A stretch of DNA of 64,000 bases from Rhizophagus irregularis (lineage: Eukaryota). The position numbers and the translations under genes were made by a program. Numbering within the stretch: position 1 is the first letter of the stretch; every line of letters starts with the position of its first letter. Positions 33,810-62,633 of the stretch are shown here, piece after piece. The stretch spans positions 2,604,001 through 2,668,000 of the forward strand of contig NC_089432.1 in the NCBI RefSeq assembly GCF_026210795.1. The letters are read 5' to 3'. Under the pieces are notes generated by a model. That model did no database searches and was not told the origin of the DNA. It saw only the letters and a list, made by a program, of their open reading frames with translations.

Positions 33810-36800
33810 CTAGCCCTTGATTTTAACTTTGCCTTCAAAATCGCTATTCTGATCTAAAATAATTTAATAAATAAAAAAATAAATACATCAAATATAGGTA
33901 AAAATAAGTTTATTATAAGTATAGATGCTTACCAGACAATTGTGAAATGTCAATTTGCAGGGATTCTATCAAAAAAAAAATAAGTATTTTGTATACAATT
34001 AATTTGAATATTTTTTCATTAATCAATACCTTGAGACTCCATACTAATTTCAGAATACTTTTGCTCAGAAAGATTATTGTCATTGATTTTTAATTTTTTT
34101 AATTGAGAAATATCAATTAATAAGGATTCTAATTAAAGAATTGAAATAATATTAGTTAGTATTTTACAATTAATAAGAAATTTTATATTAATCATTACCT
34201 GAAGATTTTATGCTAATTATATCATCATTCTCTTTATAATAATCATCAGTATTTTTTGGTTCAGGAAGATTATTAAAATTAAGTAATCTACTGGTATAAA
34301 TAGCTTCTGAATGTGTTTTAAATGATATTCCTAAATTGGTTGAAATTGCACTGACCAATGTTCTACTATTGGTTATTTCTGATTCCTTAATTTGTTGTTG
34401 TATTCCTGTATAATTATCAAATTCGCTATGACCACTTAATTCCCTAAGCCATTGGCTTAACAATTTTTTAATTTCTTCTGCTTTTGGCCTATTTAATTGA
34501 TTTGCATCCAAGCATCTTTTAATTAAATTCACAATTAATTGAGGAACTCTAATATTGAATCTTGGTCTTAGTCCTTGACAAATTCTTATTGCTAAATTAT
34601 TATTATGGCTTACATCATGATATGGAGGTAATCCAGAAATTACCTCATACATAATTATACCAATACTGTAAATATCTGCAGCTTTGGTATAATCTTGGCC
34701 TCGTAAAATTTCAGGAGCAATATAAGGTAAAATACCATATATTTTATTTTTAGTATTTTCTGATGCATTATAATCTGCAGGTTTGCATAATCCCATATCA
34801 GTTATACATGTCATGCTTTTAAGCCTTAATATATTACCAATATGCAAATCTCGATGAATTAATTCTTCTTCATGAATATCTTTAAGTCCATGTGCAATGC
34901 TATGTAAATAATTAATTTTATCACTCCAACTTAATTTATCATAATTTCCATTTAAATAATTTCGCAAATTTCCACCTTCTGCATAATCTAAACCATAACA
35001 TAATTTTTTGTTTCTGGATCTTGAGTTATTCCATAAAATTTAATAATACGCTTTTGCAAGTTTAATTTGTAATGTAAGGTTATCTATATATTAAATAAGT
35101 ATTAGCACTAATAATTATAAAGATTTTAAATTTCAAATAGTAAAATAATTCACCTCATTCATAAATTCAAATGTAACATTTTTTGAATTATTTAAGCTTT
35201 TGAGTGCTACAAACATATTTTGATCTTTTCTTTTCCAATTTTGTTGTTTATTGTCCCATTCATCAATATATCCGTCAATCCATCTTGCTCTATATACTTT
35301 GCCAAACCCACCTTTTGCAATAAATTCAATATCATAAAATCTGTAGTAAGGTATCCATTCTAATGCTTTTTTGGACACATTATAATTACTATATGTTGAT
35401 AATTGGATACCTCGAATAAATTTATCAATATCTTCATTCCCACTAGTCCAATTTTTGAAGTTTTGCTGAAAATGGATTGTACTAAATACATATTTATAAT
35501 TATTGGTTTTTGGATCTTGAGTTACTCCATAAAGTATTTCAGCCTATAAATAAATTATATTAATGAAAATTTAAATTTTGAAATATTATTAATAATTAAT
35601 TTACCTCATATTTAAATTCTAATGCAATATCTGCCAAATTGTTCAAGTTTTTAAGAATTACATACATATTCTGGCCTCCTCTTTTCCAATTTTGATGTTT
35701 ATAATCCCATTCAATTATATATCCATCAATCCATTTCGCTCTATATACATCTTTTGTAATATATTCAATATCATAAAATTTATTGTAAGATATCCATTCT
35801 ATTGTTTTCTTGAATATTTCATAATCATCATGTGTTGATAACTGAGAATCTTGGATGAATTTATCAACTTTTTTATTACCACTAGTCCAATTTTTGAAAT
35901 TTTGTTGAAAATGTATTATACTACATGCATTTTTACATTTTTTACATTTATTATTCAAAACCATCATATAATTCTTAGCTTCTGAATCTTGAGTTATTCC
36001 GTAAGACATTTTAACCTATAAATAAATTATATTAATGAAAATTAAAATTTTAAAAATATTACTATTAATTAATTTACCTCATCTCTAAATTCTAATGCAA
36101 CATCTACCAGATTATTCAAGTTTTTAAGAATTACATACATATTCTGGCCTCCTCTTTTCCAATTTTGATGTTTATAATCCCATTCAATTATATATCCATC
36201 AATCCATTTCGCTCTATATACATCTTTCGTAATATATTCAATATCATAAAATTTATTGTAAGGTATCCATTCTATTGCTTTTGTGAATACTTTACAATTA
36301 TCATGTACTGATAACTGAACATCCTGAATAAATTTATCAACATCTTCATTACAACTAGTCCAATTTTGGAAGTTTTTCAAAAAATGCATTTTGCAACACA
36401 CATATTCACATTTTTCACATGTATCATTCAAAACTACTATATAGTTCTTAGTTACCAGATCTTGAGTTATCCCATAAAATTCATGAGTTATACAAAACTA
36501 TAAATAAATTATACTAGTGAAAATTAGATTTCAAAAATTTCATTAACCAATATATTAATTTACCTCATTTATAAATTCGGAACTGACATCTGTTGGACTA
36601 TTTAAGCTTTTAAGAACTACAGACATATTTTGGCCTTTTCTTTTCCAATTTTGATGTTCTTTATCCCATATGTCCATATATCCATCAGCCCATTTTGCTC
36701 TATATACTTTACAAAACTTATTTTCTGAAATATATTTAATATCATAAAATCTATTGTAAGGTATCCATTCTATTGCTTGGCATGTATAATTACTATGATC

Positions 36801-36950
36801 TGATAGCTGAGAATCTTGAATATATTTATCAATATAATTATTCCCACTAGTCCAATTTTTAAAATTTTGGTTAAACCGTTTTGCATTACATTCACTATCA
36901 CAATCACATGACTTAATCAGCTTTTTGGTAATTTTAGCAAAGAATTCCAT
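33810..36950 (-). CDS. Multi-module TKL-type kinase: three tandem partial N-lobe-like modules followed by one complete kinase domain
   Basis: Four repeats of NWTS(G/C)N..(I/V)DK(F/Y)I...EWI.Y..F.DI...VYRA.W.DG, each ending at an E|GT splice site. Only the fourth has GGFGKV and continues to HRDLHIGN, DMG, APE. Short 3' exons to a TAG at 33810 are less certain. Confidence 0.85.
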
Positions 36951-38199
36951 TGCGAACTCTCGAACTACATATAAAAAAGTAAATTTGAAAAAAAACTTTG
37001 CTAGTAGTTAAGTAGTAAGACGAAAAAAAAAATTCAGACCGATGTAAAAGTTGTACTTATGTACTAACTCGAGTGTCACGTGATTATATGAAGACCAGAC
37101 TGCGAAACTAAATAAATATGCAGTGTAAATTGACATGAAATTTGTGCGTTATAAGGACAATAGATATAAATAGATTAGTGGCGCAATTTAATACTATTTA
37201 TTTTAGGTAGACAATTTATTTTTAGTGACATTAGAATTGGAACTTAATTATAATTTATTTATTCCAAAGTCATAAAATTAGATAAATAAATGAGGGCTAA
37301 TTTGGGTTATTCATGCCAAATTATATTATGATCTAATAATATAATTTAAATTAATCCAAAACTTATGTCAAAATAAATATCAGTCAATTATAAAAAAAAA
37401 ATCATCATGAATTATCTGAAAATCTGGATATACAATATATTAATATTTTATTTAAAATAGGTTTTCTCTCTTTTTTTGCTTATTAAAATAATTTCTAATG
37501 GTCAATCCCGCTTCTCAAAAAATAATTTAGAATAAATATTAGAATAAAAATTGATTATATTTCATTATTTCTGAAAATAATTCTTGTCATTGATCAAATA
37601 TTTAAAGAACGTTTGTACTAACTTGGGTGTCACGTGATTATTATGATCAGTACTGGCGGTTTGGGTTCGCGGTTTTTAGAATTACTTTTGACTCTCGCAT
37701 AGTTTGTCATTAACTCCTTATAATTTGTAATTTGCAACCGTGACTTCATTCACGTGGAATGTAAAAATAAAAATAAAATTAAAATTAAAACTAAATAAAT
37801 ATGCAGTGTAAATTGATATGAAATTTGTGGACAAATTTTACTATAGATATAAATAGATTAGTGGCGCAGTTTAATATTTATTTTAGATAGAGTTTATTTT
37901 TAGTGATATTTTATTTAGTTTAGTGGTCCGCGATGACTTTAAACTATGAAATTTGGGGATTATGGTGGTCAGGGATGACCTTTAATAATGGTTATTATAT
38001 TGATATTTATTATAGTATTATTTATTATTTTTCATTATCATTTTATATATAGTTGAACTTGGGCAATATTTTGTATTTTCACGCACTAATAAACCTTTGT
38101 TTTACCCGAGAAGTATTTAACTGTATAGGTCGGCAAAGGATATACTAATCCTTACAGGTAATGCTGCGGGGTGGTCGTACAGCGTTTCATCGTTTCACT

Positions 38200-42332: not shown

Positions 42333-42681
42333 TAGTGTTCCGAAGGGGTCGAGTCAGGTCAGGTTTTGAGGTGTATTCGAACTCGACCCGAGTGTAAAAG
42401 TAATGACTTGAATTCGACTTGACCCGATTCAGTTATAATCTGACTCAGATAACCCAGGTTCGACCCGTCAAGTTGTATATAATATAAAAAAATTGAAATT
42501 TTTAGTTAAAAATATAATAAAAAGATTCGGGTCGCTGGGTCAAAGTAAAGGTATAACCCGACTTGACGGGTCGGGTCAAGTTCATGCGGGTTACGGGTCA
42601 TCAAATCGTGCGACCCCAACCCAACCCCTAAATACGAGTCGGGTCAATAACCCGGGTTTGACCTGACCTTTCGGAACACTA
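42333..42681. mobile_element. hAT-type MITE
   Basis: TAGTGTTCCGAA...TTCGGAACACTA ends; 8-bp TSD AATGCAAT/AGTGCAAT; many GACCCG/CGGGTC motifs. Confidence 0.85.
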
Positions 42682-43140
42682 AGTGCAATATAACGTAATA
42701 GGCAAAAAATTACAAAATTTTATTAACACTATCAATGTAATTGATTATAATTATTATAAAAAGAGAGAAAATGGTATCTAAGAATAGAAAAAAAAATGTA
42801 AGAACCTTAAAGTTTGAGAGAAAATGAAAAAATCATTAGTTATTGATGGTAAACTCAATAATCGCCAATAATCTCAAACTTTGGACGAAAGAAGTAAAGA
42901 AACTCAAAACTGTACATAATAATTGACTTATAAGGAAAAGCTGTAAACAAACCTATTAACGCAACTTCTGGCAGGGAATCTTAGAAAAGAATGCGAAACA
43001 TATATTGGGTTTAAAATATTCGGTGAAAATCCACCCCAGCCAAATGATCGACATAGTTTATAAGCTGGATGTTCGTGCGCTAACTTATAGCTTATAAACT
43101 GCCCATGGGCATATGTAGCCCACGGGATCTGATTGGTTCA

Positions 43141-44250
43141 GAATGAGGACAATAATGTCCTCATAATTATGGACTGTGATAGTCCTTTAGTTTAAAAATG
43201 AGGGCAATAATGTCCTCGTAATTATGGACTATGAAGTGCCTTCAATTTAAAAATGAGGACAATAATGTCCTCGTAATTATGGACTATGATATGCCTTCAG
43301 TTTAAAAATGAGGACAATAATGTCCTCGTAATTATGGACAATGACATGCCTTCAGTTTAAAAATGAGGACAGTAATGTCCTCGTAATTATGGACTATGAT
43401 GCGCCTTCAGTTTAAAAATGAGGACAATAATGTCCTAACGTAATTATGGACTATGACAAACCTTCAGTTTAAAAATGAGGACAATAATGTCCTCGTAATT
43501 ATGGACTATGAAGTGCCTTCAATTTAAAAATGAGGACAATAATGTTTTCGTAATTATGGACTATGATATGCCTTCAGTTTAAAAATGAGGACAATAATGT
43601 CCTCGTAATTATGGACAATGACATGCCTTCAGTTTAAAAATGAGGACAATAATGTCCTCATAATTATGGACTATGATGTGCCTTGAGGACAATAATGTCC
43701 TAACGTAATTATGGACTATGACAAACCTTCAGTTTAAAAATGAGGACAATAATGTCCTCGTAATTATGGACTATGATAAACCTTCAGTTTAAAAATTAGG
43801 ACAATAATGTCCTCGTAATTATGGACTATGATGTGCCTTCAGTTCAAAAATGAGGACAATGTCCTCATAATTATGGACTATGATAGACCTTCAGTTTAAA
43901 AATGAGGACAATAATGTCCTAACGTAATTATGGACTATGATAAACCTTCAGTTTAAAAATGAGGACAATAATGTCCTCGTAATCATGGACTATGATGCGC
44001 CTTCAGTTTAAAATGAGGACAATAATGTCCTCATAATTATGGACTATGATGCGCCTTCAGCTTAAAAATGAGGACAATAATGTCCTCATAATTATGGACT
44101 ATGATGCGCCTTCAATTTAAAAATGAGGACAATAATGTCCTCATAATTATGGACTATGGTAGACCCTTCAGTTTAAAAATGAGGACAATAATATTCTCAT
44201 AATTATGGACTATGTTGGGCTTTAGTTTAAAAATTAGGACAATAATGTCC
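43141..44250 (+). repeat. Left subterminal tandem array, about 21 x 55 bp
   Basis: Consensus GAGGACAATAATGTCCTCGTAATTATGGACTATGAnnnnCCTTCAGTTTAAAAAT. Confidence 0.97.
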
Positions 44251-44255
44251 CTATA

Positions 44256-44588
44256 CATCATGGCGGATTTATAGAATACCCAAAAATTTGTCTGTCATGT
44301 CAAATTAAATAAATATTAGATGAGGTATTATTTTAGTCATCAAATTTCTATTTAAGTCCCAAATTTATTAGTGAACAGTCAAAAATGAGTTCTAAAAAAT
44401 TTTTTTGTACCTTAAATCTTGCATCTAACCAATTTTCCCATTATCTAAACAATTATTTCAGTATTAAAGGCACATCATTATTTGACATTTTTTAGGAAAA
44501 AGCTTAATGTTTTGGTAAGTCAATTTTGATTTCTGAGGGCGCAGCAGGATTTTTGCCAAATTTCATAAATCCGCTGCAATAAATGATG
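44256..44588. mobile_element. MITE inserted into the innermost 55-bp unit (second copy at 51741-52006)
   Basis: CATCAT..GCGGATTTAT ... ATAAATCCGC..ATGATG ends. The interrupted repeat unit resumes at 44589 (GACTATGATGGACTTCAGTTTAAAAA). Confidence 0.7.
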
Positions 44589-45326
44589 GACTATGATGGA
44601 CTTCAGTTTAAAAATAAAGGAAAAAATTATATAGTGGAACGGAAAGTTCACTATGACGAGCTTTGACTGTATAACTTTAGTTGCTTATTTAAATTTTTTT
44701 TTACTAGCTAGTACTAGTATTTTTAATTATCCAATCAAAATTATAGTCCAGAGTTTAAGTATTAAATAAGTTGCAAATTCAACTGTAAAGTTCTTTAATT
44801 AATTGCATATGGTTTAATATATTTAATTTCAATTTTTATATAATGATAATATACATGATTTAAAATGTACAATTAGCTTACTGGTATATAATGAATTGGT
44901 CTGTTCTGTTCTGATCCAGTCTGGTTTTAACAAAACTAGTCTTTTAACTAGAACTGGATCAAATCAGCCTTTGAGCCATTTTAAAGATTGTTCTTTAGAC
45001 TGGTATAAAACTGAAATTATTTTGCTATATGTATGTAGCTTTGACTTAATCAGAAAGACAATGAAATTATCAGTCATAACTTAACAGTCATTATTTAATT
45101 ATATCTAATTTGTAATAAACTGATATGAAATTTGAAATATGAAATTTTAATATTATATGATAATGAAATTAAATCATTTTATTGGATGAAAAATTTATAA
45201 CCTTGGATTAAAGACCATAATAACCAGTTCTAGAACTGGGGAAATTATTTTATTACCAACTATAATGCTAACTATTCTACTATTCACTCAAATTATTTAT
45301 CTTAAAATATATGTTATTTAAATTAC

Positions 45327-46743
45327 TTAATATCTTTTCTTATCTTCAGTACTTAAATCAGAATAATTACAGAATAAAACATCTTCAGGCCATCCTATTA
45401 TAGTATATTTAGTTTGGTTATACCAATTTTTATAGGGTATTCTTTCTTTTGTTATCAAATCTATAATTAATTAAGTATAATTATTATTAACTTTCCATTA
45501 TATTTAAAATTATAATTATTACTTACTAAATTTCTCTTGTAAATATTTTCTAACTTTATCACGTGCATTCTTACTATTTGGACATTCTTTATCAATAATA
45601 GATAATTGATCATCTGCACTTTCTATCATAGTTATATCCTCTATATCTTTTTGAAATGTAACTTGTTTAATAATTTCATTTTTAGCTGATACAGAATAAT
45701 ATAAAAAGTTAGTTAATTTTTATAACATTTGTATAAAATAATATTATTATACCTGATTTTTTTAAACAAGAAAAATGATAAAAACTGTTATGAATTTCGT
45801 CTAGTTTTAAGCAGGACTTGTAAAATTCTTCACCAACTGGAGTTCCAAAATAAGAGATGTTCAATTCTTTGCTTAAAGGAATCACAAGTGTCAAAAATTC
45901 TACATCACAGGTAATTTGTAAAGTTCGATACTAGAAATCAAGCATTTAATAATTAATTATATAGAATTTTATATTTTAACTGATAATCTAATAATATATA
46001 TACATACCAATTTTCTAATTTCACAAATTTGTTTATTTAATTCAGCTTTGCGAAGTCTTATACTTTCTATTAATTTTGGTTCTTTATTGAATCTATTTTC
46101 AGATAATTCTTCAGCTCTGTTTTTAAAAGAATTCAATTGTTCTTTATTAAGCAATGCATATTCTTCAGCACATTGTTTTTGAGCTCCTGGAGTAGTAACT
46201 TTAATTTCTAGTAAATATATAATTCTTTTAATAAGTAAATATTTTATGATAAATTAAACCAATAATATTTATAGAACATACTATTTTTTTTGAACCATTC
46301 AGTTTGAAATGTATTCCATGAACTAATACTGCGAGTCTTTTTTGGTGCTGGTTCTCGATTATCTTTCATGATACTCTATAATTTATAAAAAATTTGGTCA
46401 AATCAAAATAAATTATTCTTTGAATTGTATTCAAAATTTTTAACCTTTATAAATGCTAGCTCAAGTTGGCATTCATCAGATAACATTTGGATTTCTGCAT
46501 CATGTTTTTGTTGTAAAGCAATAATCTTTTCATATTTTTCCTGTGTAAGACCTAAATTAAATTAATTAACTTAAATATAAACTGAAAGTATAAAGTATTT
46601 TAATATTTAAAACATTATATTGTAATTACCATCGCCTTTTTCTTTGAAAAGTTGATCACTAAAAGAATCAGATATGAGATATTAATACAAGGTAAATAAT
46701 TTTTAAACAGTATATCAAAAAAACTTTACGTTGAAATATCCAT
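45327..46743 (-). CDS. Transposon-borne HMG-box-like protein, 8 exons, about 300 aa
   Basis: Hand-spliced GT-AG model: MDISTDQLFK...PKKTRSISSWNTFQTEWFKKNKIKVTTPGAQKQCAEEYALLNKEQLNSFKNRAEE...IPYKNW...IIGWPEDVLF. Possible 1-nt frameshift just before the C-terminus. Confidence 0.7.
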
Positions 46744-47049
46744 TATGAGATGGGTGTAAAGAGATTAAATGATCAAAAAGATGAAAAGATTGTGATGAAA
46801 AAAGCATGAAAATGTTATTTTAATTGGCTGTCAGCTATTTTGATCAAGAATTATGATTGGCTAATAATCACCTGAAACAAACAAACAATCATTTGTACAA
46901 TAAATAATGAAAAAAATATGATTCAAAGTTTTGGTGACATACTTTTAATTACTAACTTATCAAATTGCTTCTCTTTACTGAATTTTTAGAAAGCTTACTT
47001 ATTCACTGTTAGGGTATTTAACTCATTACCATTTCTAATATTTTCTCAT

Positions 47050-47830
47050 TTTATTTTTTTAATAATTTTACTATTTTCTGAATTTTTTTGTTTTTATTAT
47101 TTATACTTAACTCCTCTGTTTCTCTATCACTTCTTTTATCCTTCTCTAATCAAGAATCTCCTTATCTTTTAATCCAATTTACCTATGCTTTGAGACTTCT
47201 CAGAACTTACTACTTCTTGACATCTCATTTTCCAAATTTTTTCATATATATACGTCAAATATAAGTCACAACATATCTTCAACATCTTTGAATCATCTAC
47301 TTTACAATGTTTATATTGCCAAATCTTGATGTTAGAAAGTCCACGCATTATCTCATATAGTAAATTCTTAATGTAAATAATCTTGATTTAACATTACTAT
47401 GTTGTAAAGCTTTTCTCTTTCTTTATTATCTTCTGTAATTACATTGACTGCATCTATCCATAAATTAATAGAAGAATCTTGTTACAATGCTACTATATAG
47501 TAGTATGATCCCATGTTTCTGTTTCTTCATTACATCTTATACATTTCTCTGAAGAAGTTCCAAAAACTTTCCTTTGATATAATATTTCATATGTTGGCAA
47601 TGTTTAAAGAAACTTTTTGATCCTAAAAGCTCTAATTTGAGTATCCATCGCATTAGTTGATGATTTTGATACACTTGTTTCATTACGAATTATCATAAAC
47701 AAAATTGGCCAATTGATGTTAACTTATATTAGTTACAAATAGCTGTTCTAATTATTTTAATAACATAATTTCTTTCTTATTGTTAAGACTACTAAGGTCT
47801 TTGGCCCATTTCTATAACAACCTTCCATAT
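47050..47830 (-). mobile_element. Decayed LINE ORF2 C-terminal fragment nested in the KDZ element
   Basis: LPTYEILYQRKVFGTSSEKCIRCNEETETWDH (Cys/His finger region), with many stops. Confidence 0.65.
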
Positions 47831-47899
47831 TTTATTTTTTAAAAAAAAATTTGCACTGCATTTCTTTATTAAACAATACCATAGATATACATATTAACG

Positions 47900-50800
47900 T
47901 CAGAAATACCTAGAGGCATGTGAAAAAGCACATGACCCTATAGCAAACCAGTCTATTTAAATACAAAGAGCATATATAATTATATATACCTGAGCGTGCA
48001 AAAAGAACTAACAACAATATATAATCGATGTCACTCAACCCAAAAGAAACAATACAAAATAAAAAAAGAAAAACAAAAAACTTTCACACATAACATATAT
48101 AAAAACTCTAGACCTAACAGAAAACTAAAATTTAACTAAAGTAAGATTACAAGTAACTTCCATTATACGGAAATGTGTTTAAAACCAAACGAAACTTTCA
48201 TTAGTGACCACTCGCCCAGAATTATCACACCTCTTTTCCAACTTCCATCACCTATAATCCACTTATCCCTTTTTTTTATTTTTTTAATTTTAATAATGCA
48301 TTTATTATCAATTACAAAAAGATTACATAAAAAAATTTTTAAAACACTAAAAAATAATTAAAAATTTTAATTATCTTCTATAACTAAAAGCATTTTATAC
48401 TAAAAAATTTTTTTATACTAATTTATTTTAATACCCCCATGATTTCGTAATTGATATACCTTCCATTATTTCTAATATTGTTTTCTATATTTTTTCTTTA
48501 TCTTTTTCTATATTATCTGCTGTTTTGTATTTTTTCTCGCTTTACCTCCTCCTTTTGCTCTTTTGATCTTTTTTACGTTTCTTTTTCTCACCTTTCTTTA
48601 AATCCTTCTTTTCTTCTATCGCCACTACATCTTTACATCTTTTATCCCATATTTTCAATCTTATATTCTCATAACAAAAACACCACAATTCTTCTATAAT
48701 CATATTGTATTCTTTTTCTTCAAAATAAGATTGAAATTGTTATTATATAATCCTCTAAGCATCTCCCATTCTCTACTAAAACCTAATAAAATTCTTGTAG
48801 GCTTTTCTAATACTTGAACAAAATCCTATTAATATCTCATAATATTGTCGAATCATCAATCTTTTTTTCATCCTCCAACTTTTTATCGAATTCTCTATAA
48901 TTTCTCTTACAGAAAATTCATTACACTCACATTTCCATTAATTATACCAATCTTCTTCTTCCTTATTGCATCTTGGGCAGGTATCATTATCAATCCAAAT
49001 ATTTTCCTTTTAAAAAGTACACTATATGTTAGTAATTCTTTTATCCAATTTTTAATTTTATACGCTCTTTCTTTTGTGTCCTCTTGCGCACATTGCCAAA
49101 ATGTAAATTTGTTCCATTGCTTATAAATTTTAAAGACTTTACCCAATCGAATTTATTTCTGTAATTATAGGAAAATAAATCTTCAATCTTTTTACTATTT
49201 AAAATTTCGTTCTTCCATATCACTTCTGAAACTTTCTTTCGCCATCCCCTTAAATCTCCTAAAATCAAATTATATTTCCAATATAAATTGAATTCGTTGG
49301 TCACTAATCCCCCTTCATTAAAGTCTATCATATATGTTTCATTTTTGCTTTCTTTCATTTGCAATAGAATTTATCCATTTCTTCTTTACATATTTTTATA
49401 TCGTTCGCCTCCTTCTCCGTACACGAAATCGTTCTTATATTCATTTGCGATCAAAACTTTTCTATTACCAATAACTCCATATTGTATTCATTATCTAACC
49501 TTCGTCTTGTACTTAAATTTTCTATAATTCTTTGATAATTCACAAAATTTCCCATCTAAACCTAAAATTAATTCGCTATTACTATTTAATAAAATGATAC
49601 CTATTATCAAACATCTTAATAAAATTTTGTATTCATTCTCAAACAATACTTTAAATTTTCTGTTAAAATTAATCTCATTCTTTGTAACGAATTCTTCATG
49701 TCTTATCTTCCACATTACTAAATATTCAATCGATTTTTTCCCATTTTCCTTAACTTTACTTTTTAGTTTCATAACCTCTATCATTAAAAAATTTACCTTC
49801 CTCCTAAAACTAAAATCGTCTTTCTCTAAAATACTATTCTTTAAAATTCTATCAGATTTTTATTTGTATTAACCAAATTATCTATCATCTCAATTCTTGT
49901 ATTAAATCTTTATTCTTTTTATTCTTCTCTTAAATATTTTTCCACCAGATCATTTATTTTTAATATTTCGGAATGTCTCATAAGGTTTGATATTCCAACC
50001 TTCGTTCCGTTTTCTAATAATCCTACTTTCTTCATTTTAAATAAATTAAACATTCAATTTTACTCTCTTTATTCATATTTTTTTTTACCTATATTCTTTT
50101 TACAACCCTTACATTTAATTAAAGTAGGTGAATCATCTATATTTATATTCTCATTTATCATGATCCAATGTATCCCTATCCTCTTATAATTTTTATTTCT
50201 TGATTTTTTCCTATCTTCTCCAAAGATAGGAAATCCTTTTTCATCATTCCATGTTATTAAATTATTTCTTGACACTTTCTCATTTTCATCAAAAATTTTC
50301 ATATGAATATTATTTCTATCAAAATTTTTATTTTTATATTAAATTTCTCATCTCTTTATTTTCTCTCACTTCGTTTTCTACAATCTTAAACCAATTAGGT
50401 ATTTTACCTCTAAAACTCAAATCATTTCCTATAAAACATGTTTCCACTTCATTATTCTAAATTGATTTGCTTCCAATAATTGTTCTAAAAAGAGAATTTC
50501 TTTCTTTCTTCGTGATAATGCACTTCTTTAAATTTCTGAATCAGGTAATAGATCTATTATCTCTATATTACCACCTTTAATCTTATGCCCTGCATTTTCG
50601 TCTAAAATCTCATGATTGCATAAACTCATGTTTCTGATTTCAACAAGTTAATTGCATCGTTAATCTAACAATTGCGTCCTTTTATTGCTTTACCATTTAT
50701 ATCTCCTATGCACACTGCGGTCCACAATCTCATTTATTCTTGCATTATCTTGATTTTAAATAAAGTACTCAATTTTTCATTACCATTTGCTAAATAAATA

Positions 50801-51170
50801 ACATTCTTACTTAAACTTTCAAGTTGCAGATCGTAAATATTTTTTAACCCATAAAATCTTTCTCATATAAAATCATTTTTTAAAGCTTTCATAATTTGTC
50901 CCCATCAAAATTTTTCCTTCGTTAGAATTTTACTTAGTCATTTACCAGAATTTTCAAAAATAATTTTCTCGCTGTCTCTATTAAAGTAATTGGTTGTATC
51001 AATTTCAAATCTTGATTCCAGTCGGATAAATTAGACCTTTTTTCCATTCTCCTAAAATTACTCCACACTCCATACCCTCATTAATTATTCCTAACAAAAA
51101 CCTTTTGTTAAATTTTTACAATATTTCCAATAGTCATATGGAATCCCACATTCCCACTAATATCTGGAGC
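47900..51170 (-). mobile_element. Second decayed LINE (ORF2 3' half plus 3' UTR) nested in the KDZ element
   Basis: Frameshifted fragments: LFLEQLLE, RGKIPNWFK, GDLRGWRKK, ERAYKIKNWIKELLTY, REWEMLRG. Boundaries approximate. Confidence 0.65.
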
Positions 51171-51740
51171 TTTATTATTTTTTGCGTGCTGGCATCTCTA
51201 TAAAAAAAATAAGAAATTTCAGAAACATTTCTTTAAAACAATTAAATTAAAGAAAAAGCTCTATCTCCTATAAGTGTCTACCTTCTTTGTTTAATGGCAC
51301 CCTTTGAAAAACTTTAAATTTATATTTCATTTATACAGTATTCTCTATTGTCTCATGTTTTATTATACAAGTAAAGATTTTGATTATCTCAAATTTAGCT
51401 ATAATAAATGATGGTACTGGATTATATTATAAATAGTTGATAGAAGCCAGGTGTAGAGTACTGAAATATTTGCAAAGAAATCTTAAAATAAAATTGGAAT
51501 TTTAACAATTTAATTAGCGTTAATTAGGATAATCATTAAAAGCCGAAACCAAATTTACTTTTATACCATGTGAAATCAGACAATCAATACAAAATATGAC
51601 GTAATAAAAGTTATTGGAAAAATCGAAAAATCAGAATTTTTTTATTTGATTATAATAAATATAAAAATAATTATTAAAAGTTTAATATTCAGTTTCATAA
51701 TAAATATATAATATTTATATAACAACTTAATTAAAATTAA

Positions 51741-52006
51741 CATCATGGCAGATTTATGAAATACCCCAAAATTTGTCTGTCATGTCAAATTAATTATATG
51801 TTTGATCACCAAATTTCTATTTAAGTCCCAAATTTATTAGTGAACAGTCAAAAATGAGCTTTAAAAATTTTTTTTTCCAGTGTTAAAGGCGCATCATTAT
51901 TTGACATTTTTTTAGGAAAAATTTCTGTAAGTCAATTTTAATTCCCAAGGGCGCAGCAGGACTTTTTCCAAATTTCATAAATCTTTATAAATCTGCTGCA
52001 ATGATG
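51741..52006. mobile_element. Second copy of the 44256-44588 MITE
   Basis: Collinear, high similarity (AAAATTTGTCTGTCATGTCAAATTAA; AAGTCCCAAATTTATTAGTGAACAGTCAAAAATGAG) with internal deletions. Confidence 0.75.
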
Positions 52007-52427
52007 ATAATCAGTAATATTTATTTCTTGAAAAAATAATCGCAAATGAAGTTAAATTTTTTCGCCTAATATGAAGAATTTTATGCCACAATAAATTTGC
52101 ATCATTTTTGTGATTGATTTAATATATAAATTTGCACAAGAAAATAATTTTTACACAAAAACCCTATAACTATCTTTTTTTATTTAGTAATCATTAATTT
52201 AAATTTGATTGATGATATATTACATTTTATTTTCAATTGACCGTTTATGATTAAATAATCCTTTGTAATTTAAATTGTATTATAGTTACTAATTAAAAAA
52301 AATTCAAATAAAATGTATAGATTTTTTTTTATTATTTTAGCCCCCATTTGATCGGAGTACAAACTATAAATAAGTTTTCTATAATTTTTAACAGGTAATT
52401 AAAGTAATTATTCTATTTTGAGTTACA

Positions 52428-52730
52428 ATCTAAAAATAGTATAGAAAACATTTCAAACATTTTCCCATTACGCGTTTAATTCTAAAAATAGTATAGAAAA
52501 CATTTCAAACATTTTCCCATTACGCGTTTGATTCTAAAAATAGTATTGAAAACATTTTAAACATTTTTCCATTACGCGTTTAATTCTAAAAATAGTAAAA
52601 CATTTTCCCATTACGCGTTTAAGTCATTTAATTCTATAAATAGTATAGAAAACATTTCAAACATTTTCCATTACGCGTTTAATTCTAAAAATAGTAAAAC
52701 ATTTTACCATTACGCGTTTAATTCTAAAAA
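52428..52730 (+). repeat. Tandem repeat, 6 units of 39-60 bp, each containing ACGCGT
   Basis: TTCTAAAAATAGTA...AAACATTTTCCCATTACGCGTTT; ACGCGT at 52470, 52522, 52574, 52613, 52673, 52712. Confidence 0.92.
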
Positions 52731-52819
52731 TAATTAATTACAAATGTACTAGAATAAAATAACATAAACAATCCCTATTTTTCTTTTTTTTAACGTTTAC
52801 GAAATTTTAAACTTTTACA

Positions 52820-54810
52820 ATGTCAAATAATATAAAGGTAAATTGTACTTTTAGTTATTATAGTTAAATAAAATTATTTATAATGTATTTAATATGTTTA
52901 TTTATTTAACTTTAAGGACAATAAAGTTTCATTATCATTATCTGATAATGACAATATAAAAATTTCAGAAGCTTTATCTTTTATTCGTAATAAACTTCAA
53001 GGCCGCCTTAAAAACATTTCTGTCATCAACGATCGTACAGCTGTCGTCATATATGGAAAACATAAAGATAGATTGATGATCGATTTGAAGGATAATAATT
53101 ATTATGAAAATTTAGAAGTAAGATTATTAAAATTAAATTCTTTTTTTTCTCTATAATTTATATTTATATTTTTATATGCATATTAGGAAAAACTCGAAGC
53201 ACTTAAAGCTGAAAATAATAATTTGCTGGTAAATAGTGTTATATATAATACAAATGTGTTTTAATTTTAAAATTTACATTTTATTAAAATTTTATTTAAT
53301 ATATTAAAATTTACTTTAGTCTGAATTGAAGAAGTTTGAAACCCTGGCGCGTTTTGATGGATCATTTTCAACAGTCGTATCATCAGATAATGATAATAAC
53401 GAAACTAGTCTAGTTGATAACATATCTACAACTTCTACTGCATCTAATAATTTGCCATCAATGTCATCCCCGTCTATATCAACTTCTTCTAAACCTTTTA
53501 AATTAGAAGATTATATTACAGTTTTAAATAATGATTTAAATACCGTTAATCAATCAATTGAAGATGATTCTGATGAAATTTGGGAGAAATTAAATTCCAG
53601 ATGCCACAAAAAATTTGGATATAATAACGAAATCAAACAACCTACAAGAGAGGATATAAAATGGGGGGCTGATATTCTACCTATTTATGCAGAATGGAAA
53701 AAACTAAAAGATTTTAAATGTTTAATAGAAAAATGGATCGCTAAAATCAACGAATATATGCAGAAAAATGATATGTTATCGTCGTCCCCAACTTTAATTT
53801 CATCTTCATCTTCGTTCTCAACATTAATTCAACCATCACCATCTTCAACATCAGTTCCATTATCATTTGTCTCTTTAATTAAAGGAAAGAAAGTAAGAGA
53901 TAATGTAAATGAAAGCATAGAAGTTGTAAAAATTAATGTAGATAATAAAAATGAAGTGGACGAAGATGTAGAAATTATGGAGATTGATGTAGAAAATGAC
54001 GATATACAAAATGAAGAAACTGAAGGTATTTCTGTTTTTTATTGAACTAATAAATATAATTATTATTAATTTATATTTATATAATCTATTATATTTCTTA
54101 AATCAATAGATAAAGCAAAAAAAAACCTTGAAGCTAAAGAATTAAAAGAGAAGAAATTCAAAAAATTTGGTGAAAAACTCCGAAAACTAGTTATGGATGA
54201 TCTTCAATCAAATACTCATGATTCACCAGTTCAAAAATTGGCAGATAAAGATATGGTTAATGAATCGGATTTACAAAATAATAATTTAACGCACTCCCTT
54301 AATCTTTTAACTGCTGAACCAATTAAGATTATAGATAAAACAAGTGGTATACAAAGAGTCAAGCAGTGGGCCCTCCAAAAGAACCAAATAGAAAAAATTG
54401 GAATAGCGTTCAATGTATTCAAGTTTTATCATAGGATGTCCTTGATTGATATTTATAATGAAATTAATGTTGTGGCAGAATCAAATTTTCCAAATCAGAA
54501 GGGTAAACAAAGGACATTTGTAAAAGAGATTATTTGTATTCAAGAAGGCATTTCAGAACGTTCAGAACGACGTTTTAAAACAAGTGCAATGAGGTTACAA
54601 CATATCGTTAGTGCAGGAATATCCTTTAATCAGATAATTAAAGTAGGAATGCACGTATCTGATTTTGAATCCACCAACCATTTTTATGAAATATTTATGG
54701 AAGCACTTGATATCAATTCAATAGAAAATTTAAATGAAGGAGTACGACCATTGAATACAAAAATTTTATTTGATAAATTGTCAGCATATGAAATAATGGA
54801 ACTAGATTAA
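52820..54810 (+). CDS. Transposon-borne protein of unknown function, 5 exons, 555 aa
   Basis: Exons 52820-52837, 52917-53117, 53187-53228, 53320-54025 and 54110-54810 are all GT-AG, in phase and stop-free. Ser-rich and acidic linkers; helical C-terminal domain. Confidence 0.8.
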
Positions 54811-55347
54811 TGAGTTTTAGCATTTATTAATTTTTAGTTAAATTTGTATTGTTTTTTTTTTTGAAGTAGGGAATTATTATAAAATCTTTACTAAATATTA
54901 TTAAAATTATTGAAATAAAAGATTCTTAAAGTAATAGTTCAGTATAAATTAAAGTTACCGTGCATTGCTTAAAAGGCCCATTTTAGCTTCTATATTTAAT
55001 ACCGACCCAAAATATCATAATATATAGATTTTTTTTATTTTCTTAAATTAAGAATATTAAACCATTAAACCATTACTATAAGTTGAATGAAATCTTTCGT
55101 ACATTAAATTTGTTTAATACAGCAGGATGTATGTATACACCCGATCTAATTAAATGTTTTAAACCTGGTAAATTGATTTATACCTAAGGTATTAGGCAGT
55201 GTTATAAGGTACTTATGGTAATATCTGCTAATCTGCTTTTATTTTATAAATAGATTTGATCTGCAGCAAGTAGTCTAATTGGCTAATTTAGTTTGATCAA
55301 TCCCGAAAAATTTTTTTTTGTAAATTTATTCTTTTTACATATTTAAT

Positions 55348-58300
55348 ATGAATAAAGGAAATTTGAATAAAAAAGGTATTTATATTATTGTTATTAAAGA
55401 AATATATTTAAATTGTTACTTAATATCTTTTATTTTTAGGTAAAATTAGTTACAGGCCTTATTTAGTTTCTTCAAATAAAAAAAATGCAAAAAAAGTAGT
55501 TATTAATCGATATGCAAAAGGAAGTAACAAATATCGAGCCAAAAATTTATCTGAAAATATATATAAATCTACTGAAATAGTGGATGAAGATAGAAACAAT
55601 GATGAATGGATAGATATTGATATTATAAAAGAAGATGAAAACTATAGTTCTGCTAAAAATACATATAAAAATGCTCAAAAAAATTTGTCCGAAAATTGGA
55701 GAAAAATCTCACCAAAATTATTTGACATTATGATAGAAAATAATGCAATTAATAAGGACTCCAAATGCTTCAAATGTAATTCACCTGCCATTTGTTATTG
55801 TTTAGATTGTGGTCTTAATACTTATTTGTGTTTAGAGTGTAATACTTTATATCATAAGGATATAAATTTATTTCATAGAAAAGTTTTTATAAGTAATATT
55901 TTTGATAAAGAAGAAATAAAACTACCACAATTATGTACAGGATTTTGTGAGCATGAAATTAAGGAAATATCAATCATTAATTTAAAAGGTAAAGTATAAA
56001 TCTTATTTGTTATACTTTAATAAAATTTTCAATTAAATAAATATTGCATTAAATAGGAATATTTAAAGCAAAATTTCCAACTTGTGAAGGTTTGGTCGAA
56101 ACATTAATCAGGCATAAATTATTTCCTTCCACCCCTATAAATCCACAAGTTGCTTTCTCATTTGAATTATTTGATATTTATCAAGAATTATTACTCGAAG
56201 CACATGTATCATATCTTTCATTTTGTCGAGTATTAGAATCATTATTCTCTGATCAAGATATAACTAGAGTTAAGTTTTTAAAAAATTTCATTATATTAAT
56301 GTTATATAGTTTACTAATATGTTTTTATTATTATTAGAACATATATTATCTTTTTAAATCTGCTTTTCATCAATATTTAGGATTAAAAACTATGATTGAA
56401 AATACTATTAATAAGTTATTTAGTAGTAAATCACAATTTAATTGTCCAGCTTGTCCACAGGTAACTTTATTTTTTGCTTGATTTACTTCCCATTTATATT
56501 TTTAAAAACTTTTTTACATTATATTTTGAATTAATAAACAAATTTAATTATAGCCAGAAGAGAAAAACTCTAAAATTATAATTGCATTGGATGCTAATTT
56601 TCAACTTAAACGAATGAAAAGTGCTGGTTCTAATATTGGTGAAAGAATAATTGAAGAATCATTTATTTTAAACCAAAATAAATATGATGAATGGGTACAA
56701 AATTCGATTAATTTAAGTTCATTAAATACATTAAATATAAATAATAATAATGCGGTAAGTATTCTATATATATATTTGTTGTTTATTTAACTTCATTTAT
56801 TATTTTAATTTGTTAATTATTAATTATTTATTATTTCATTAAGCAAATAAATGTATGTGACAGCCATTTTAAAGCGGCTAATCAAACAAAAGCAAACCTT
56901 AAATCCAATTATTTGGACGATACAGGAATATTTGGAAGTACATGTAGGCACGGCATTCCTTTAAAATTTATTAATTTAAAAGGAATTGGGGAAAGGTAAT
57001 TTATATATTATTGTAATATTAACATTTGATATTAACATTAGTTATTCATATTATATAATTACATTTTTATAGATTTTCTTTAGCAGAATATATTTTATCA
57101 GATTTACATAATATGTTTTATGAAGATTCTTCTACATTTATTGTCTTATATGATATTGCATGCAATCTTCATTCACATGTAGAAAAAAGTGAAAGTAGAC
57201 TTTTTCCATTCAAATCTCGATTTAATTGGTGTGTTTCAATATTTCATGCCTATGCACATTCAATGAAATGCCAATTAAATTACCACCCAAGGGCTTGTAA
57301 TTCCATAGGATTAACTGATGGGGAAAGTTTAGAAAGACTGTGGTCATATTTAGGACGCTTTTCTTCTACAACAAGATATATGAGACCACATCATAGATTG
57401 GATATTTTAGAAAAAGGAATTCAGCATATAAGTAGAAAAATGATTAGTAATTTAGGTAATGTTCAATTAAATTTATGATAATTTAAAATATTTATATTTT
57501 AATTTATATTTTTATTTTATATCAGCATGTAACTTAGTTAAAAGGTTTAAAAATGCTTATAAAATAATGAATGTATCAGTAAAAATATTAAAAGAAATGG
57601 AACAAATGCATGGAATTGATGAAAGTAAAATACTTTATTATATTCAGTGCCAGTATGAATCCAATTTTGGTAAATATTATGTATTTTATTATGCTAATTT
57701 TTTAAAAATTAGTTTTAATATATGAGATTTTTAGTTTTTAGGCAACATTTAATTGGAAAAGAGTTGTATTTCTTAAACCTAATGGAATTACATCCATATG
57801 AGTATGTACTAATTTTATTCAAGTAATAATTATTTTAATATTACTAAATACTAATATTATTTTTTTAGGATTGAAATATCAAAAGCTAACTCTGAAAGAC
57901 AGTTGGAATCATTAAAAAGATCTCGCTCATTATATATAAAAAAAGTTGAAAAATGTGAATCAGATTTAGATATACCTGAATCAAAAAGATGGAATCCATT
58001 TAATCCTATATATTCCAAATATTTTCATGATTATTGTGAACGTAATTTGGATTTAATTTCTGATAAGCTTAGAAAATTTCGTAATGAATATATATTTAAA
58101 AATTCACAATTATATAATCAAGACCATATAGGTAATTATATATATTTGTAATCTTAACTTATTTATTAAAATATTATTTAACCATATTTATTTTTATTAG
58201 GTCATAAGTTAACATTAAAAATTAAATCAAGTATTAAAGATATTTCAAAACAAATTGAAATAAACATTTCATATTATGAATATTTCAGATTACTTGCACA

Positions 58301-58992
58301 AGAAAATTCATTTTGTAAAGATTATCCAAAAGCAATATTTAATGAAATAGTTAATCATACGTCAGATTTTTGGCAAATATTAGATATATCAATTAATGAT
58401 AAAATGGATAATATACCTCGAATAGTTATATTCAATTCAATTAAAAATTTTAATAATTTACAACGGTCTAAAGAAGAAATATCATTAATTGTGCAAGAAT
58501 TAAAAAGATTATATGATTTCTGGATGAATTATAAAATTAAAATTGAAAATAAATTACAACAATTACAACAATTTAATGAAAAAACTACAAAAAATGTAAG
58601 TATTATTCATTTTTATCTTGTAATTATTTTGAACAAGCTATTAATAATCTAAATAAAAAATTTGTTTGTAGTATGGAATGATTTGTATTTTGATGAAATA
58701 TTATAAAAATGTAAGTAAAAATTTAGAAAATTGTCAGATAGCTTTAAACAAAATTGAAAATTACAAAGTGAATAATACTGTACAAGTAGTAGATGTTCCA
58801 ATTTATGATTTAATTAATGAGATTGAGGAAGATAATCTTTTAAAAGGAGATTTAGCAGAAAATTTAACTGAATTAGAAATTTGTGATAATGAAGAATGTA
58901 TAGAATATGAAGGGGAAATAGTAGATAAAAGTAAAGATTGTGAAGAAGAAATAATAACAGAAGGTGAAAGTATGGATTATAAAATAGTATAA
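55348..58992 (+). CDS. KDZ-family transposase with N-terminal Cys clusters, 12 exons, about 945 aa
   Basis: CFKC..CLDC..CLEC..H; LFPSTPINPQVAFSFEL (CxC-type); CPACP; ALDANFQLKR; DTGIFGSTCRHG; GERF; YDIAC; FHAYAH...CQ; GLTDGESLERLWS. Exons total 2838 nt with no internal stop. Confidence 0.93.
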
Positions 58993-59636
58993 TCGATCCA
59001 AAAGGAGCAATATGAATTGAATATCTAATAAATCTGACAAATATTTTGATACTTAAAAAAATTAGTCATATATAATATAATATTTATTATAACAACTTTG
59101 AAATAAATAGAAGAAACCTATTTTACTTTAAAAATAACTTTTCTAACAATTTGATTAGGAGTTTAAAGCGGTAAAAAAATATTGCAATTAAAATATATTT
59201 TTATTTCTCTAAATTTTCTGCCACATTATTACCTTTTAGTTTAAATGGTTATGGCACAATTTCCTGACGGGATTACATTTGCCTGAAAGATTTGGCCAGT
59301 GTTATGCAGGTTATGCATGAACACGTGATCAAACGGCCAGCGTTAGGTTATTGGAAAAATGTCCTGTCAGGGAACAGTCCATAAGTGGTTTAAATAGACA
59401 ATCAAATATGAAAATACATTTTAAACAAAAAGAACATGCTATTTATAATATAACCTGTTAATAGTAAGTTATATGAGTATACTACTGTTATTATTTTAAA
59501 TGAGATCTATAATTATAAAGACACTATGATTGTCCATTTACTAATTAGGAGGTTCCTATAATCTATATATGAATACAGAAGCTGAATATAATTTAAATGA
59601 GAGGTCCAATATTGTCTGTAATTATGAGAGCTATTT

Positions 59637-61016
59637 TAAACTAAAGGACTATCATAATCTATAATTACGAGGACATTATTGTCCTCATTTTTAAACTGAA
59701 GGCACATCATAGTCCATAAATACGAGGACATTATTGTCCTCATTTTTAAGTTGAAGGTCTATCATAGTCCATAATTACGAGGACATTATTGTCCTCATTT
59801 TTAAACTAAAGGACTATCATAGTCCACAATTACGAGGACATTATTGTCCTCATTTTTAAAATGAAGATCTATCATTGTCCATAATTACGAGGACATTATT
59901 GTCCTCATTTTTAAACTAAAGGACTATCATGGTCCATAATTACGAGGACATTATTGTCCTCATTCTTAAATTGAAGGCACTTCATAGTCCATAATTATTA
60001 GGACATTATTGTCCTTATTTTTAAACTGAAGATCTATCATAGTCCATAATCACAGGGACATTATTGTCCTCATTTTTAAACTGAAGACACTTCATACTAG
60101 TCCATAATTACGAGGACATTATTGTCCTCATTTTTAAGTTGAAGGTCTATCATAGTCCATAATTACGAGGACATTATTGTCCTCATTTTTAAACTAAAGG
60201 CTTGTCATAGTCCATAATTACGAGGACATTATTGTCCTCATTTTTAAACTGAAGATCTATCATGGTCCATAATTACGAGGACATTATTGTCCTCATTCTT
60301 AAATTGAAGGCACTTCATAGTCCATAATTACAAGGACATTATTGTCCTCATTTTTAAACTAAAGAACTATCATAGTCTATAATTACGAGGACATTATTGT
60401 CCTCATTTTTAAATTGAAGGCACTTCATAGTCCATAATTACGAGGACATTATTGTCCTCATTTTTAAACTAAAGGACTATCATAGTCTATAATTACGAGG
60501 ACATTATTGTCCTCATTTTTAAATTGAAGGCACTTCATAGTCCATAATTACGAGGACATTATTGTCCTCATTTTTAAACTAAAGGACTATCATAGTCTAT
60601 AATTACGAGGACATTATTGTCCTCATTTTTAAACTGAAGGCACATCATTGTCCATAATTATTAGGACATTATTGTCCTCATTTTTAAACTGAAGATCTAT
60701 CATGGTCCATAATTACGAGGACATTATTGTCCTCATTTTTAAACTAAAGGACTATCATAGTCCATAATTACGAGGACATTATTGTCCTCATTCTTAAATT
60801 GAAGGCACTTCATAGTCCATAATTACGAGGACATTATTGTCCTCATTTTTAAACTAAAGAACTATCATAGTCCATAATTATGAGGACATTATTGTCCTCA
60901 TTTTTAAGCTGAATAAGGCGCATCATAGTCCATAATTATGAGGACATTATTGTCCTCATTTTTAAACTGAAGGCGCAACATAGTCCATAATTACGGGGAC
61001 ATTATTGTCCTCATTC
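59637..61016 (-). repeat. Right subterminal tandem array, about 25 x 55 bp, reverse complement of the left array
   Basis: GAGGACATTATTGTCCTCATTTTTAAACTGAAGGnnnnTCATAGTCCATAATTAC units at about 55-bp spacing. Confidence 0.97.
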
Positions 61017-62527
61017 TGAACCAATCAGATCCCGTGGGCTACATATGCCCATGGGCAGTTTATAAGCTATAAGTTAGCGCACGAACATCCAGCTTATAAA
61101 CTATGTCGATCATTTGGCTGGGGTGTGAAAATCTGGGAATTTTTTTTAATCAGATGATCGACGTTGCACACACCATTTTATTTGATCACCAAGAATATCA
61201 TCATACGAATGTACTGTATTATTACAGAAGATTATATCATAGTAATCTATTTAAAAAAAAAAATTTATATCAAAAAAAATTTCCATTATCAAATCTATTA
61301 TAAAAAAAATATATTCTTATAACCAAAGCCTATTGTTATTACTAAAAAAATCAATAGAACTATTACTTAATAGTATTGGAATGACACCAGTTTATACCAG
61401 GAAGCAAAAAAAAAGTAAATTTTTTTTATAACCGGGAACTAACTATTACTATAAATTAATATTAGTAAATGTCAGTTACCGATCGGGTAAAGTCCGATCT
61501 ATTGTTGGAAAAAAATTTTTAAAAAATCTTGAAAAAATTTCTAAATTAAAAAAAAAATCCTAAAAAAAAAACAAAAAAAAATTACTAAATGATCTATTAA
61601 AAATGATTTATCATTAAAAAAAAAATAAATGAAAATTACTAAAATGATTCTGTTAAAAAAAAAATAATGATAAATGACTAAACAATCTATTAAAAAAATA
61701 AAAAAAGTTACTAAATGATTATTAAAAAAAATAAAAAAAAGTTACTAAATAATCTATTAAAAAAAAATCAATAAAAATTACTATAAGATCTATTGTTAAA
61801 AAAAAATAATTGTTTAAAAAAATAAAATTACAAATGAAAAAAATTCCGATCCAAAAAAAAAATTAAAAAATTAAAAAATTACTAAACGAAAGAAAGGCCA
61901 AAGTCCGATCTATTGCTACAAAAAAAAAAAATCCTGAAGTTAATCTATTACGGTTAAAAAATCAGAGATAAAAAAAATTACTAATCGTATAAAGAAGAGC
62001 AATATTGTATTTACAATTTATTAACTTAACAAGTTAATTGTCTATTACTTATTAATCATATTAGCCAAAACTTCAATTACCAGAAACTAAAAAATTTTTA
62101 TATTAGTAATCAAACAGTAATCAATGGATTTGCTGATCAACTACTATATGAATATGGAATAGTTCAGGCGCAGACAAATCATATTCATATTCATAAGATC
62201 AGCCGCAGTTGTAATATGTCCTGCGGTAAAAAACTTAGTAAGAAAAAAATACATTAAAAAATAAAATTTAGCCGTAGTATAAATCAAATAAAGATACTGT
62301 AAGTGACAGTAACATTAGTAATTCACCAATCAACACTTTTAATTATACAATCACGGGACACGTTTCACAATTCAAAGATTATTTATACGGGTAATCTAAA
62401 CGTTACTGATCTACACAAATTATTTTTATTATATTAATTAATAATATAGATATAGATATAGATATAGATGAAAAAAAGTAATTTAAACAATTTTAGACTA
62501 ATAAATTTACTTAATAACATTAAATGC

Positions 62528-62633
62528 TAGGTCGGGTCAGTTATTTGACTCGATTCGTATTAAAATCCCATGTCATTTTATGACTTCAAATATATCCTCA
62601 AACCCGACCTGACTCGACCCTTTCTGGGATATT
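62528..62633. mobile_element. hAT MITE remnant related to 42333-42681
   Basis: Reverse complement reads TAATATCCCAGAAAGGGTCGAGTCAGGTC, matching TAGTGTTCCGAAGGGGTCGAGTCAGGTC at 42333. Confidence 0.6.

Follow-up and report, generated by a model that had tools for sequence, protein, structure and literature searches.

The 64,000-bp stretch of Rhizophagus irregularis DNA analyzed here (the window; GC content, ~25%) carries an eight-exon gene for an HMG-box protein on the minus strand at 46743-45327, within an 18,094-bp KDZ DNA transposon. With a probability of roughly 0.55, we consider this gene to encode a dimeric DNA-binding helper of the transposon, likely acting on the ends of the element. 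We infer that the protein is made, what its binding target is, and that it promotes transposition. The presence of HMG genes beside fungal KDZ transposases was already known (divergent HMG-domain genes in this position were reportedly described by Iyer et al. in PNAS in 2014). The present locus adds an intact, multicopy element, a linkage count, a dimer model, an HMG box without wedge residues, and conserved KDZ-free paralogs.

Gene model and product

The original prediction of a hidden eight-exon gene was borne out. Seven GT-AG introns of 66 to 78 nt separate the exons, and the window as it reads yields a 304-aa open reading frame that contains the motifs initially quoted. In the splice model, the ATG-containing exon 1 (46730-46743), the start of which matches that of the database protein P0001, is followed by exon 2 (46630-46658), exon 3 (46445-46551; N-terminal helices with a weak homeodomain-like match), and exon 4 (46282-46375; helix 1 of the HMG box), all on the minus strand, like the rest of the gene. 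Exon 5 (46008-46207) encodes HMG helices 2 and 3 together with the long helix of the domain predicted to dimerize, exon 6 (45753-45930) the strand and helices at the predicted interface of the dimer, exon 7 (45527-45685) a linker and helix 1 of an I-repeat-like domain, and exon 8 (45280-45460, the window frame ending at 45327) the remainder of that domain.

The model product is identical to the named R. irregularis record P0055 over its full length and to P0001 (320 aa, 11 cluster members, 18 contigs) up to residue 302. Its annotated matches are hypothetical proteins of R. irregularis, and a search with exon 5 returned eight proteins from 56 candidates, seven of which are named Rhizophagus irregularis. 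A metagenome scan with alignment A5 confirmed no locus, while the scan with P0003 as the query gave a single locus, a 1,040-bp contig (L001; 73% amino acid identity). This diverged copy keeps all five introns that it covers; its alignment has no gap columns in 700 exon bases versus 46 in introns, and its exon mismatches are distributed 28/18/40 over codon positions 1/2/3. The identity with P0055 and P0001 and the intron/exon pattern of L001 indicate, at the level of genomic sequence, that the eight-exon model is real and is not a chance arrangement.

A possible frameshift at about 45335 had also been suspected. The window does lack one base there, but an extra T behind 45334 is present at full depth in all four contig sets compared. 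As the frameshift is missing from these sets, the usual product should be the 320-aa form encoded at 45280-46743, and a true frameshift as the usual state was rejected. The missing base is most likely a homopolymer assembly slip; a real rare allele is possible, as P0057 shares the short tail and the contigs collapse copies.

Splice junctions, proposed as a check on the model, received no support from RNA. None was seen in four raw runs (three of poly-A RNA and one doubtful; ~11 million records each), of which a quarter to a third was covered. Only 3, 3, 8, and 3 reads fell on 45100-47000; nearly all of them came from diverged sequence and clustered at the far end of this interval, leaving the gene itself almost without reads. 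These counts bear on expression only if the sampled strains carry the element. Likewise, no spliced joints were present among 15 of the 38 joints in the contig sets, and contigs of sets X1 and X3 contain introns and thus represent DNA.

The host KDZ element and linkage to KDZ transposases

The location of the gene inside a transposon, as originally predicted, was confirmed. Perfect terminal inverted repeats (TIRs) of 129 bp with a 5'-CA start (43032-43160 on the plus strand and 60997-61125 on the minus strand) and an 8-bp target-site duplication (TSD; TGAAAATC at 43024-43031 on the left, 61126-61133 on the right) delimit an element at 43032-61125, identified as KDZ by its ends, its TSD, and its KDZ and CxC1/CxC2 domains. 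KDZ elements are already listed for Rhizophagus in the accessible part of PMC5751038. The apparently intact, multi-exon transposase gene (55348-58992, plus strand) encodes the KDZ (PF18758; E value, 1.1e-30), CxC2 (3e-8), and CxC1 (4e-7) domains, and 941 of the 945 residues of the transposase P0080 are present as exact 8-mers in the reading frames of the window. Subterminal arrays abut both TIRs, with 20.3 units of 55 bp on the left (43142-44250, plus strand; 13 to 15 palindromic sites) and 25 units of 55 bp on the right (59634-61015, minus strand; 20 to 21 sites). The palindromes are of the two-fold symmetric type GAGGACA-n4-TGTCCTC, of which no example occurs in the rest of the window.

At 52893-54810 on the plus strand is a probable second accessory gene with several exons and no Pfam hit; where the accessions of the HMG gene and the transposase are 2 apart, we take this gene to be the one in between. 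An array of 39- to 52-bp units upstream of it (52429-52732) may contain regulatory sites. No match to TET/JBP was obtained by Pfam (E of ≤0.005) among 102 stop-to-stop frames of at least 42 aa in the element, a null result that is weak, as exons are short and could be missed.

A decayed coding-like stretch with a strong strand skew and no Pfam hit (47000-51300, minus strand) adjoins the HMG gene; from motifs read by eye, we presume it to be a non-LTR retroelement remnant. In contigs from sets X15 and X17, it runs on from the HMG gene without a break, and no joint skipping only this stretch is among those listed, so that it may be fixed in the element family. The HMG gene and the decayed stretch together sit between two copies, in direct orientation, of a short, high-depth, MITE-like repeat (44255-44587 and 51740-52008; identity at 233 of 258 aligned bases), and recombination between these copies could delete or duplicate the intervening segment. 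In X15 and X17, depth over the HMG-gene segment is ~2-fold that over the transposase, a ratio that is not a copy number; X1 lacks this step, and X3 shows a small one. Taken together, the direct repeats and the depth in X15 and X17 suggest that the HMG-gene segment may also occur without the transposase.

Outside the element, a short MITE-like sequence with terminal inverted repeats was seen by eye to its left (42333-42681). Several paralogous genes with 108-bp (36-codon) repeats occupy 1-27000 and 62598-64000 and are, judging from the repeat period, likely of the kinase/Sel1-repeat type. A further gene (34188-37007, minus strand) comprises four related units spaced ~450 to 490 bases apart.

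Linkage of the gene to KDZ transposases was assessed indirectly, by comparing the accession numbers of its homologs with those of KDZ transposases and by shared listed contig sizes. The KDZ list, for which 15 of 23 transposase matches were looked up (large clusters in part), covers this clade only, and only four accessions from the 18 contigs of P0001 entered the count. The pair 16994_t/16996_t, linked by locus tag and contig, was left out, as were second halves of split models and species without a KDZ transposase in the list. On this basis, a listed KDZ transposase is no more than 10 numbers away from 19 of 23 homolog accessions and no more than 3 away from 12 of these. No listed KDZ transposase is near the remaining four, nor near PKY56074 and GES96265, which are outside the 23. 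Within one accession block, taken as one assembly, six of seven homologs are within 3 numbers of a KDZ transposase (P of ~3e-13 under random placement). Ten gene-KDZ pairs share contigs of equal listed size (e.g., 764,386; 2,388,329; 78,747; and 8,104), while one counted pair sits on different contigs. In a sister family with 43 to 44% identity, all three counted accessions are beside a diverged KDZ cluster (52 to 55% identical to P0080). Copies of the gene are thus shown to reside beside KDZ transposases in several assemblies and in the sister family.

This co-occurrence agrees with the link to KDZ genes originally proposed. The precedent invoked for it, basidiomycete KDZ transposons accompanied by HMG and TET/JBP genes, applies with respect to KDZ linkage, but the host is a glomeromycete and no TET/JBP match was obtained. 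The further suggestion that transposons add to HMG gene numbers in these fungi gains modest support from the seven copies in one accession block and from two paralog groups; nothing in the present data ties these copies to the MATA-HMG expansion of arbuscular mycorrhizal fungi.

These two Glomeraceae paralog groups have the same architecture and are 24 to 26% identical to P0001. One (P0165, P0075, P0168, and P0170) is 96% conserved across R. irregularis, R. clarus, and Glomus cerebriforme, and the other (P0061, P0030, and P0065) has 97% identity and includes R. diaphanus. None of nine tested accessions is near a listed KDZ transposase, the nearest being 355 numbers away. Both groups look like host genes and are candidates for tamed or ancestral host transcription factors; these KDZ-free paralogs show that the architecture also serves without the element. 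P0173, which UniRef lists under a plant, shares 95% identity with P0165 and probably has a fungal origin.

The paralogs raise the question of whether the gene is passive cargo, i.e., a host transcription factor gene captured between the two short repeats and useless to the element. Such a reading is compatible with the conserved, KDZ-free groups of the same architecture, with the direct repeats on either side of the gene and the decayed stretch, with the tolerance of the element for other dead cargo, and with the lack of RNA support. However, the sister family, at 43 to 44% identity, also adjoins its own diverged transposase, the reading frame is open while the neighboring stretch has decayed, and L001 is free of exon indels. 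The host paralogs, moreover, are only 24 to 26% identical, so any capture would be very old, with the gene kept since. We therefore regard simple cargo as improbable and favor a function of the gene for the element.

Domains of the encoded protein

The 320-aa protein comprises an N-terminal helical, helix-turn-helix-like part (residues ~18 to 55), an HMG box (~62 to 122), a predicted MADS/NRF1-like dimer domain (~131 to 206) followed by a linker, and a TFII-I/GTF2I-like repeat (~245 to 316). For the N-terminal part, engrailed was matched at an E of 0.071 with profile A3 only, and homeodomains reached Z scores of 4.3 to 4.7 among unrelated matches.

Single sequences gave little indication of these domains. 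P0001 scores 13.6 bits against Pfam HMG_box_2, below the cutoff of 22.4, although its relative P0060 passes the HMG cutoff with 31.2 bits; single exons matched only HMG_box_2 (E of 0.015), among noise, and a single-sequence PDB search returned one irrelevant match. In contrast, the profile A3, built from 15 relatives, matched TFAM (E of 1.5e-5) and HMGB1 (E of 2.5e-5) over residues ~64 to 121. AlphaFold2 placed helices at residues 69 to 81, 90 to 99, and 103 to 122 with a pLDDT of ~90, and a fold search against 48,161 chains gave 31 matches at a Z of ≥5, consisting of 29 HMG boxes and two GTF2I repeats (best HMG match: Z of 7.7, root mean square deviation [rmsd] of 2.6, 59 aligned residues). 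The aromatic core (W70, F73, Y/W98, and F/Y109) is kept in the family. A three-helix, L-shaped HMG fold with an aromatic core is therefore a good prediction, as had been recognized from the sequence pattern at the outset. With regard to HMG type, the profile favors TFAM/HMGB, while the fold ties SOX with HMGB in a comparison that included no fungal MATA-HMG protein.

The gene was originally interpreted as encoding a DNA-bending accessory factor. In its strong form, this would be a mainly architectural HMG protein that bends DNA sharply, as HMGB1 does with RAG or Sleeping Beauty. The best HMG matches are indeed the nonspecific TFAM and HMGB boxes, and the aromatic core is retained. However, the intercalating positions of HMGB, SOX, and TFAM, which we take from the A3 alignments to correspond to N71, T87, and Q91, are not occupied by wedge-like residues in the family. 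Position 71 is N or D in 11 of 11 rows, position 87 is small or polar in all 12 and bulky in none, and position 91 is polar in 8 of 11. With polar or small residues at these likely wedge positions throughout the family, sharp bending is doubtful, and the HMG box is more likely to strengthen the hold on DNA than to bend it sharply. The box also makes up only about one-fifth of a protein with at least three domains. The bending interpretation is thereby weakened, and we consider it very unlikely as an account of the gene compared with a helper that grips the element ends.

The C-terminal segment IPY..W..GWPEDV.F noted originally is present, but its identity as a TFII-I/GTF2I-like repeat had been missed. 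P0001 scores 16.9 bits against Pfam GTF2I (PF02946), below the cutoff of 27; 6 of 15 family members match at an E of ≤0.5 (best, 4.2e-6), and the family fragment P0047 passes the cutoff (27.4 versus 27). Profile A3 matched nine GTF2I-family structures over residues ~246 to 318 (E of 0.001 to 1.2). Profile A6 matched ten (E of 6.5e-6 to 0.014), with alignment spanning the whole GTF2I repeat (E of 6.5e-6 and 1.9e-5), and profile A7 gave weaker E values (0.027 to 1). In the AlphaFold2 model, the HMG and I-repeat parts have a pLDDT of 85 to 93, and the top two of the 48,161 chains are GTF2I repeats (Z of 8.0, rmsd of 4.3, and 80 aligned residues; Z of 7.8, rmsd of 2.5, and 74 aligned residues). 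GTF2I likewise occupied Foldseek ranks 1 to 9 (E of 0.015 to 0.5), although no Foldseek match had an E of ≤0.001. From these profile and fold matches, the quoted segment appears to be the core of an I-repeat-like domain, and assignment of the C-terminal domain to the TFII-I/GTF2I-like repeat is a good fold prediction.

TFII-I proteins carry several tandem I-repeats. Membership in the TFII-I family was rejected, as the protein has a single repeat (residues ~245 to 316). TFII-I, GTF2IRD1, and GTF2IRD2 share the I-repeat with it by full-length profile and fold; in contrast to these proteins, the one repeat here is joined to HMG and MADS-like domains and is borne by a fungal transposon. Proteins P0044, P0045, and P0048, two of them from short contigs, have two to four tandem segments resembling the C-terminal domain, as in TFII-I (P0048 versus the C-terminal domain: hhalign, 68%; E, 5e-5), and nothing was found with P0048 or alignment A5 among viral contigs.

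The middle domain is the least clearly assigned. Two profiles matched MCM1 at E values of 0.53 and 0.18, and an NRF1 match (E of 1.2) spans both NRF1 domains. MEF2 took Foldseek ranks 1 to 4 (E of 0.8 to 1.6). Fold matches to MADS and NRF1 proteins had Z scores of 2.3 to 3.6, no better than unrelated matches; a wide fold search with a middle-domain model built from P0007, an annotation without the HMG part, was filled by an N-terminal helix, with NRF1 at rank 50, and an ESM Atlas search with residues 125 to 320 gave nothing useful among named clusters. The model nevertheless shares with NRF1 (PDB 8k4l), SRF, MEF2, and MCM1 a succession of long helix, strand, and helices and a predicted antiparallel-sheet dimer, and as in NRF1, a linker connects the dimer domain to a distinct C-terminal domain. 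Direct matches to NRF1 and MADS proteins are below significance (E of 0.18 to 6; Z of ≤3.6), and unlike these proteins, the present one has an extra N-terminal HMG box and a C-terminal domain far closer to the I-repeat. Residues 131 to 206 are thus assigned weakly, though by hints that agree with one another, as a MADS/NRF1-like domain.

For two copies of residues 126 to 320, a homodimer was predicted with a score of 0.69, compared with 0.41 for the best of three controls; contacts agreed by at least 61% between runs, and pLDDT was at least 72. In calibration, 21 of 30 solved homodimers from microbes attained the mark for a dimer, versus 0 of 23 single chains; for eukaryotes, the counts were 17 of 29 dimers and 0 of 30 single chains, but only one of seven without an older solved relative. 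The pass may stem from likeness to solved MADS/NRF1 dimers. The predicted interface (residues 134 to 168 and 180 to 206) consists of an antiparallel strand centered on residue 162 and antiparallel helices at residues 134 to 152, resembling the NRF1/SRF interface described in the accessible part of PMC10810270.

Possible action on the element ends

A protein predicted to be two-fold symmetric is encoded beside diverged transposases, and the end arrays contain two-fold symmetric sites; it is this correspondence that points to a role in end binding. In the proposed mechanism, the 320-aa protein would homodimerize via its MADS/NRF1-like domain and would contribute two kinds of DNA-binding domain, the HMG box and the TFII-I-like repeat. 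The dimers would most likely coat the palindromic 55-bp arrays, and the coated arrays could then be paired and held together for the transposase or serve to load it. The En/Spm TnpA protein and the Harbinger Myb-like protein act in a comparable manner, each being the DNA-binding product of a separate gene in an element that, as here, has subterminal arrays; the transposase superfamilies differ, and the likeness is one of functional analogy only. The palindromes could equally be read by the transposase or by the product of the second accessory gene.

Alternatively, the protein could be an element-encoded regulator of transcription or chromatin that keeps the transposase expressed or counters silencing, outside the cutting complex, in the manner of the plant VANC proteins or TnpA. 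All of its recognized domains come from transcription factors, its layout of dimer domain, flexible linker, and DNA-binding domain is NRF1-like, and the KDZ-free paralogs are 96 to 97% conserved across species, as regulators would be. Fungal KDZ elements also carry TET/JBP anti-methylation genes, according to the accessible part of PMC12730594. However, the 102 frames of this element gave no TET/JBP match (a weak point, given short exons), the gene looks silent in the four RNA runs, and the arrays abut the TIRs, with the left one at least 11 kb away from where the transposase starts, a position that fits end recognition better than promoter control. We consider a purely regulatory function unlikely, and binding to the element ends is the reading that we prefer.

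With other fungal KDZ-linked HMG genes, the locus shares the placement of an HMG-box gene next to a KDZ transposase. It differs from the genes reportedly described by Iyer et al. in its glomeromycete host, its complete, TIR- and TSD-bounded element, and the absence of a TET/JBP match, and for its MADS/NRF1-like and I-repeat-like domains we found no description among the titles and abstracts searched. In the ESM Atlas, the protein is closest to basidiomycete clusters (0.95, 0.94, and 0.93), one of them automatically named HMG box protein, and a cnidarian cluster with homeobox and GTF2I at 0.80 is a lead only.

The Cryptococcus elements KDZ1 to KDZ3 are ~10 kb in length, with CxC1, long TIRs, an 8-bp TSD, and extra open reading frames (PMC11343200, accessible part). 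KDZ1 thus has TIRs and an 8-bp TSD, like the R. irregularis element, whereas the extra frames of KDZ1 to KDZ3 are reported there without predicted domains, unlike the gene described here. Kyakuja elements of Laccaria have a 7-bp TSD and no TIRs (PMC12730594, accessible part), in contrast to the 8-bp TSD and long TIRs of the present element, a comparison that covers the ends of the elements. In general, KDZ accessory genes are mostly described without known domains in the accessible parts of PMC11343200 and PMC12477816, and those of PMC5753468, PMC11075540, and PMC12810828 hold nothing further on this subject. A search of titles and abstracts found no paper on the I-repeat (GTF2I) in fungi or in KDZ elements.

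The KDZ elements of fungi and algae are large and active. As an intact, multicopy element, its transposase, a putative helper protein, and a candidate binding site are all defined at this locus, recognition of KDZ ends becomes testable in vitro. The I-repeat domain is known mainly from Williams syndrome factors and vertebrate TFII-I, and the match described here would extend it to fungal transposons. The conserved KDZ-free paralogs, in turn, may represent transcription factors tamed in a fungus that is a key symbiont of plants. We tentatively suggest, at somewhat less than even odds, that the KDZ helper (HMG, MADS/NRF1-like, and I-repeat domains) is ancient and was tamed repeatedly, twice in Glomeraceae, giving the KDZ-free paralogs, and again from elements of animals, giving TFII-I/GTF2IRD. 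If true, the I-repeat would be a transposon-borne domain that predates the divergence of fungi and animals. A transposon link in TFII-I ancestry may thus be hinted at, with transfer from host to element and from element to host both possible. The nearest nonfungal transposases found are those of Mytilus (P0094 to P0096 and P0098), with 48 to 49% identity over the core exon and 29% overall identity for P0094.
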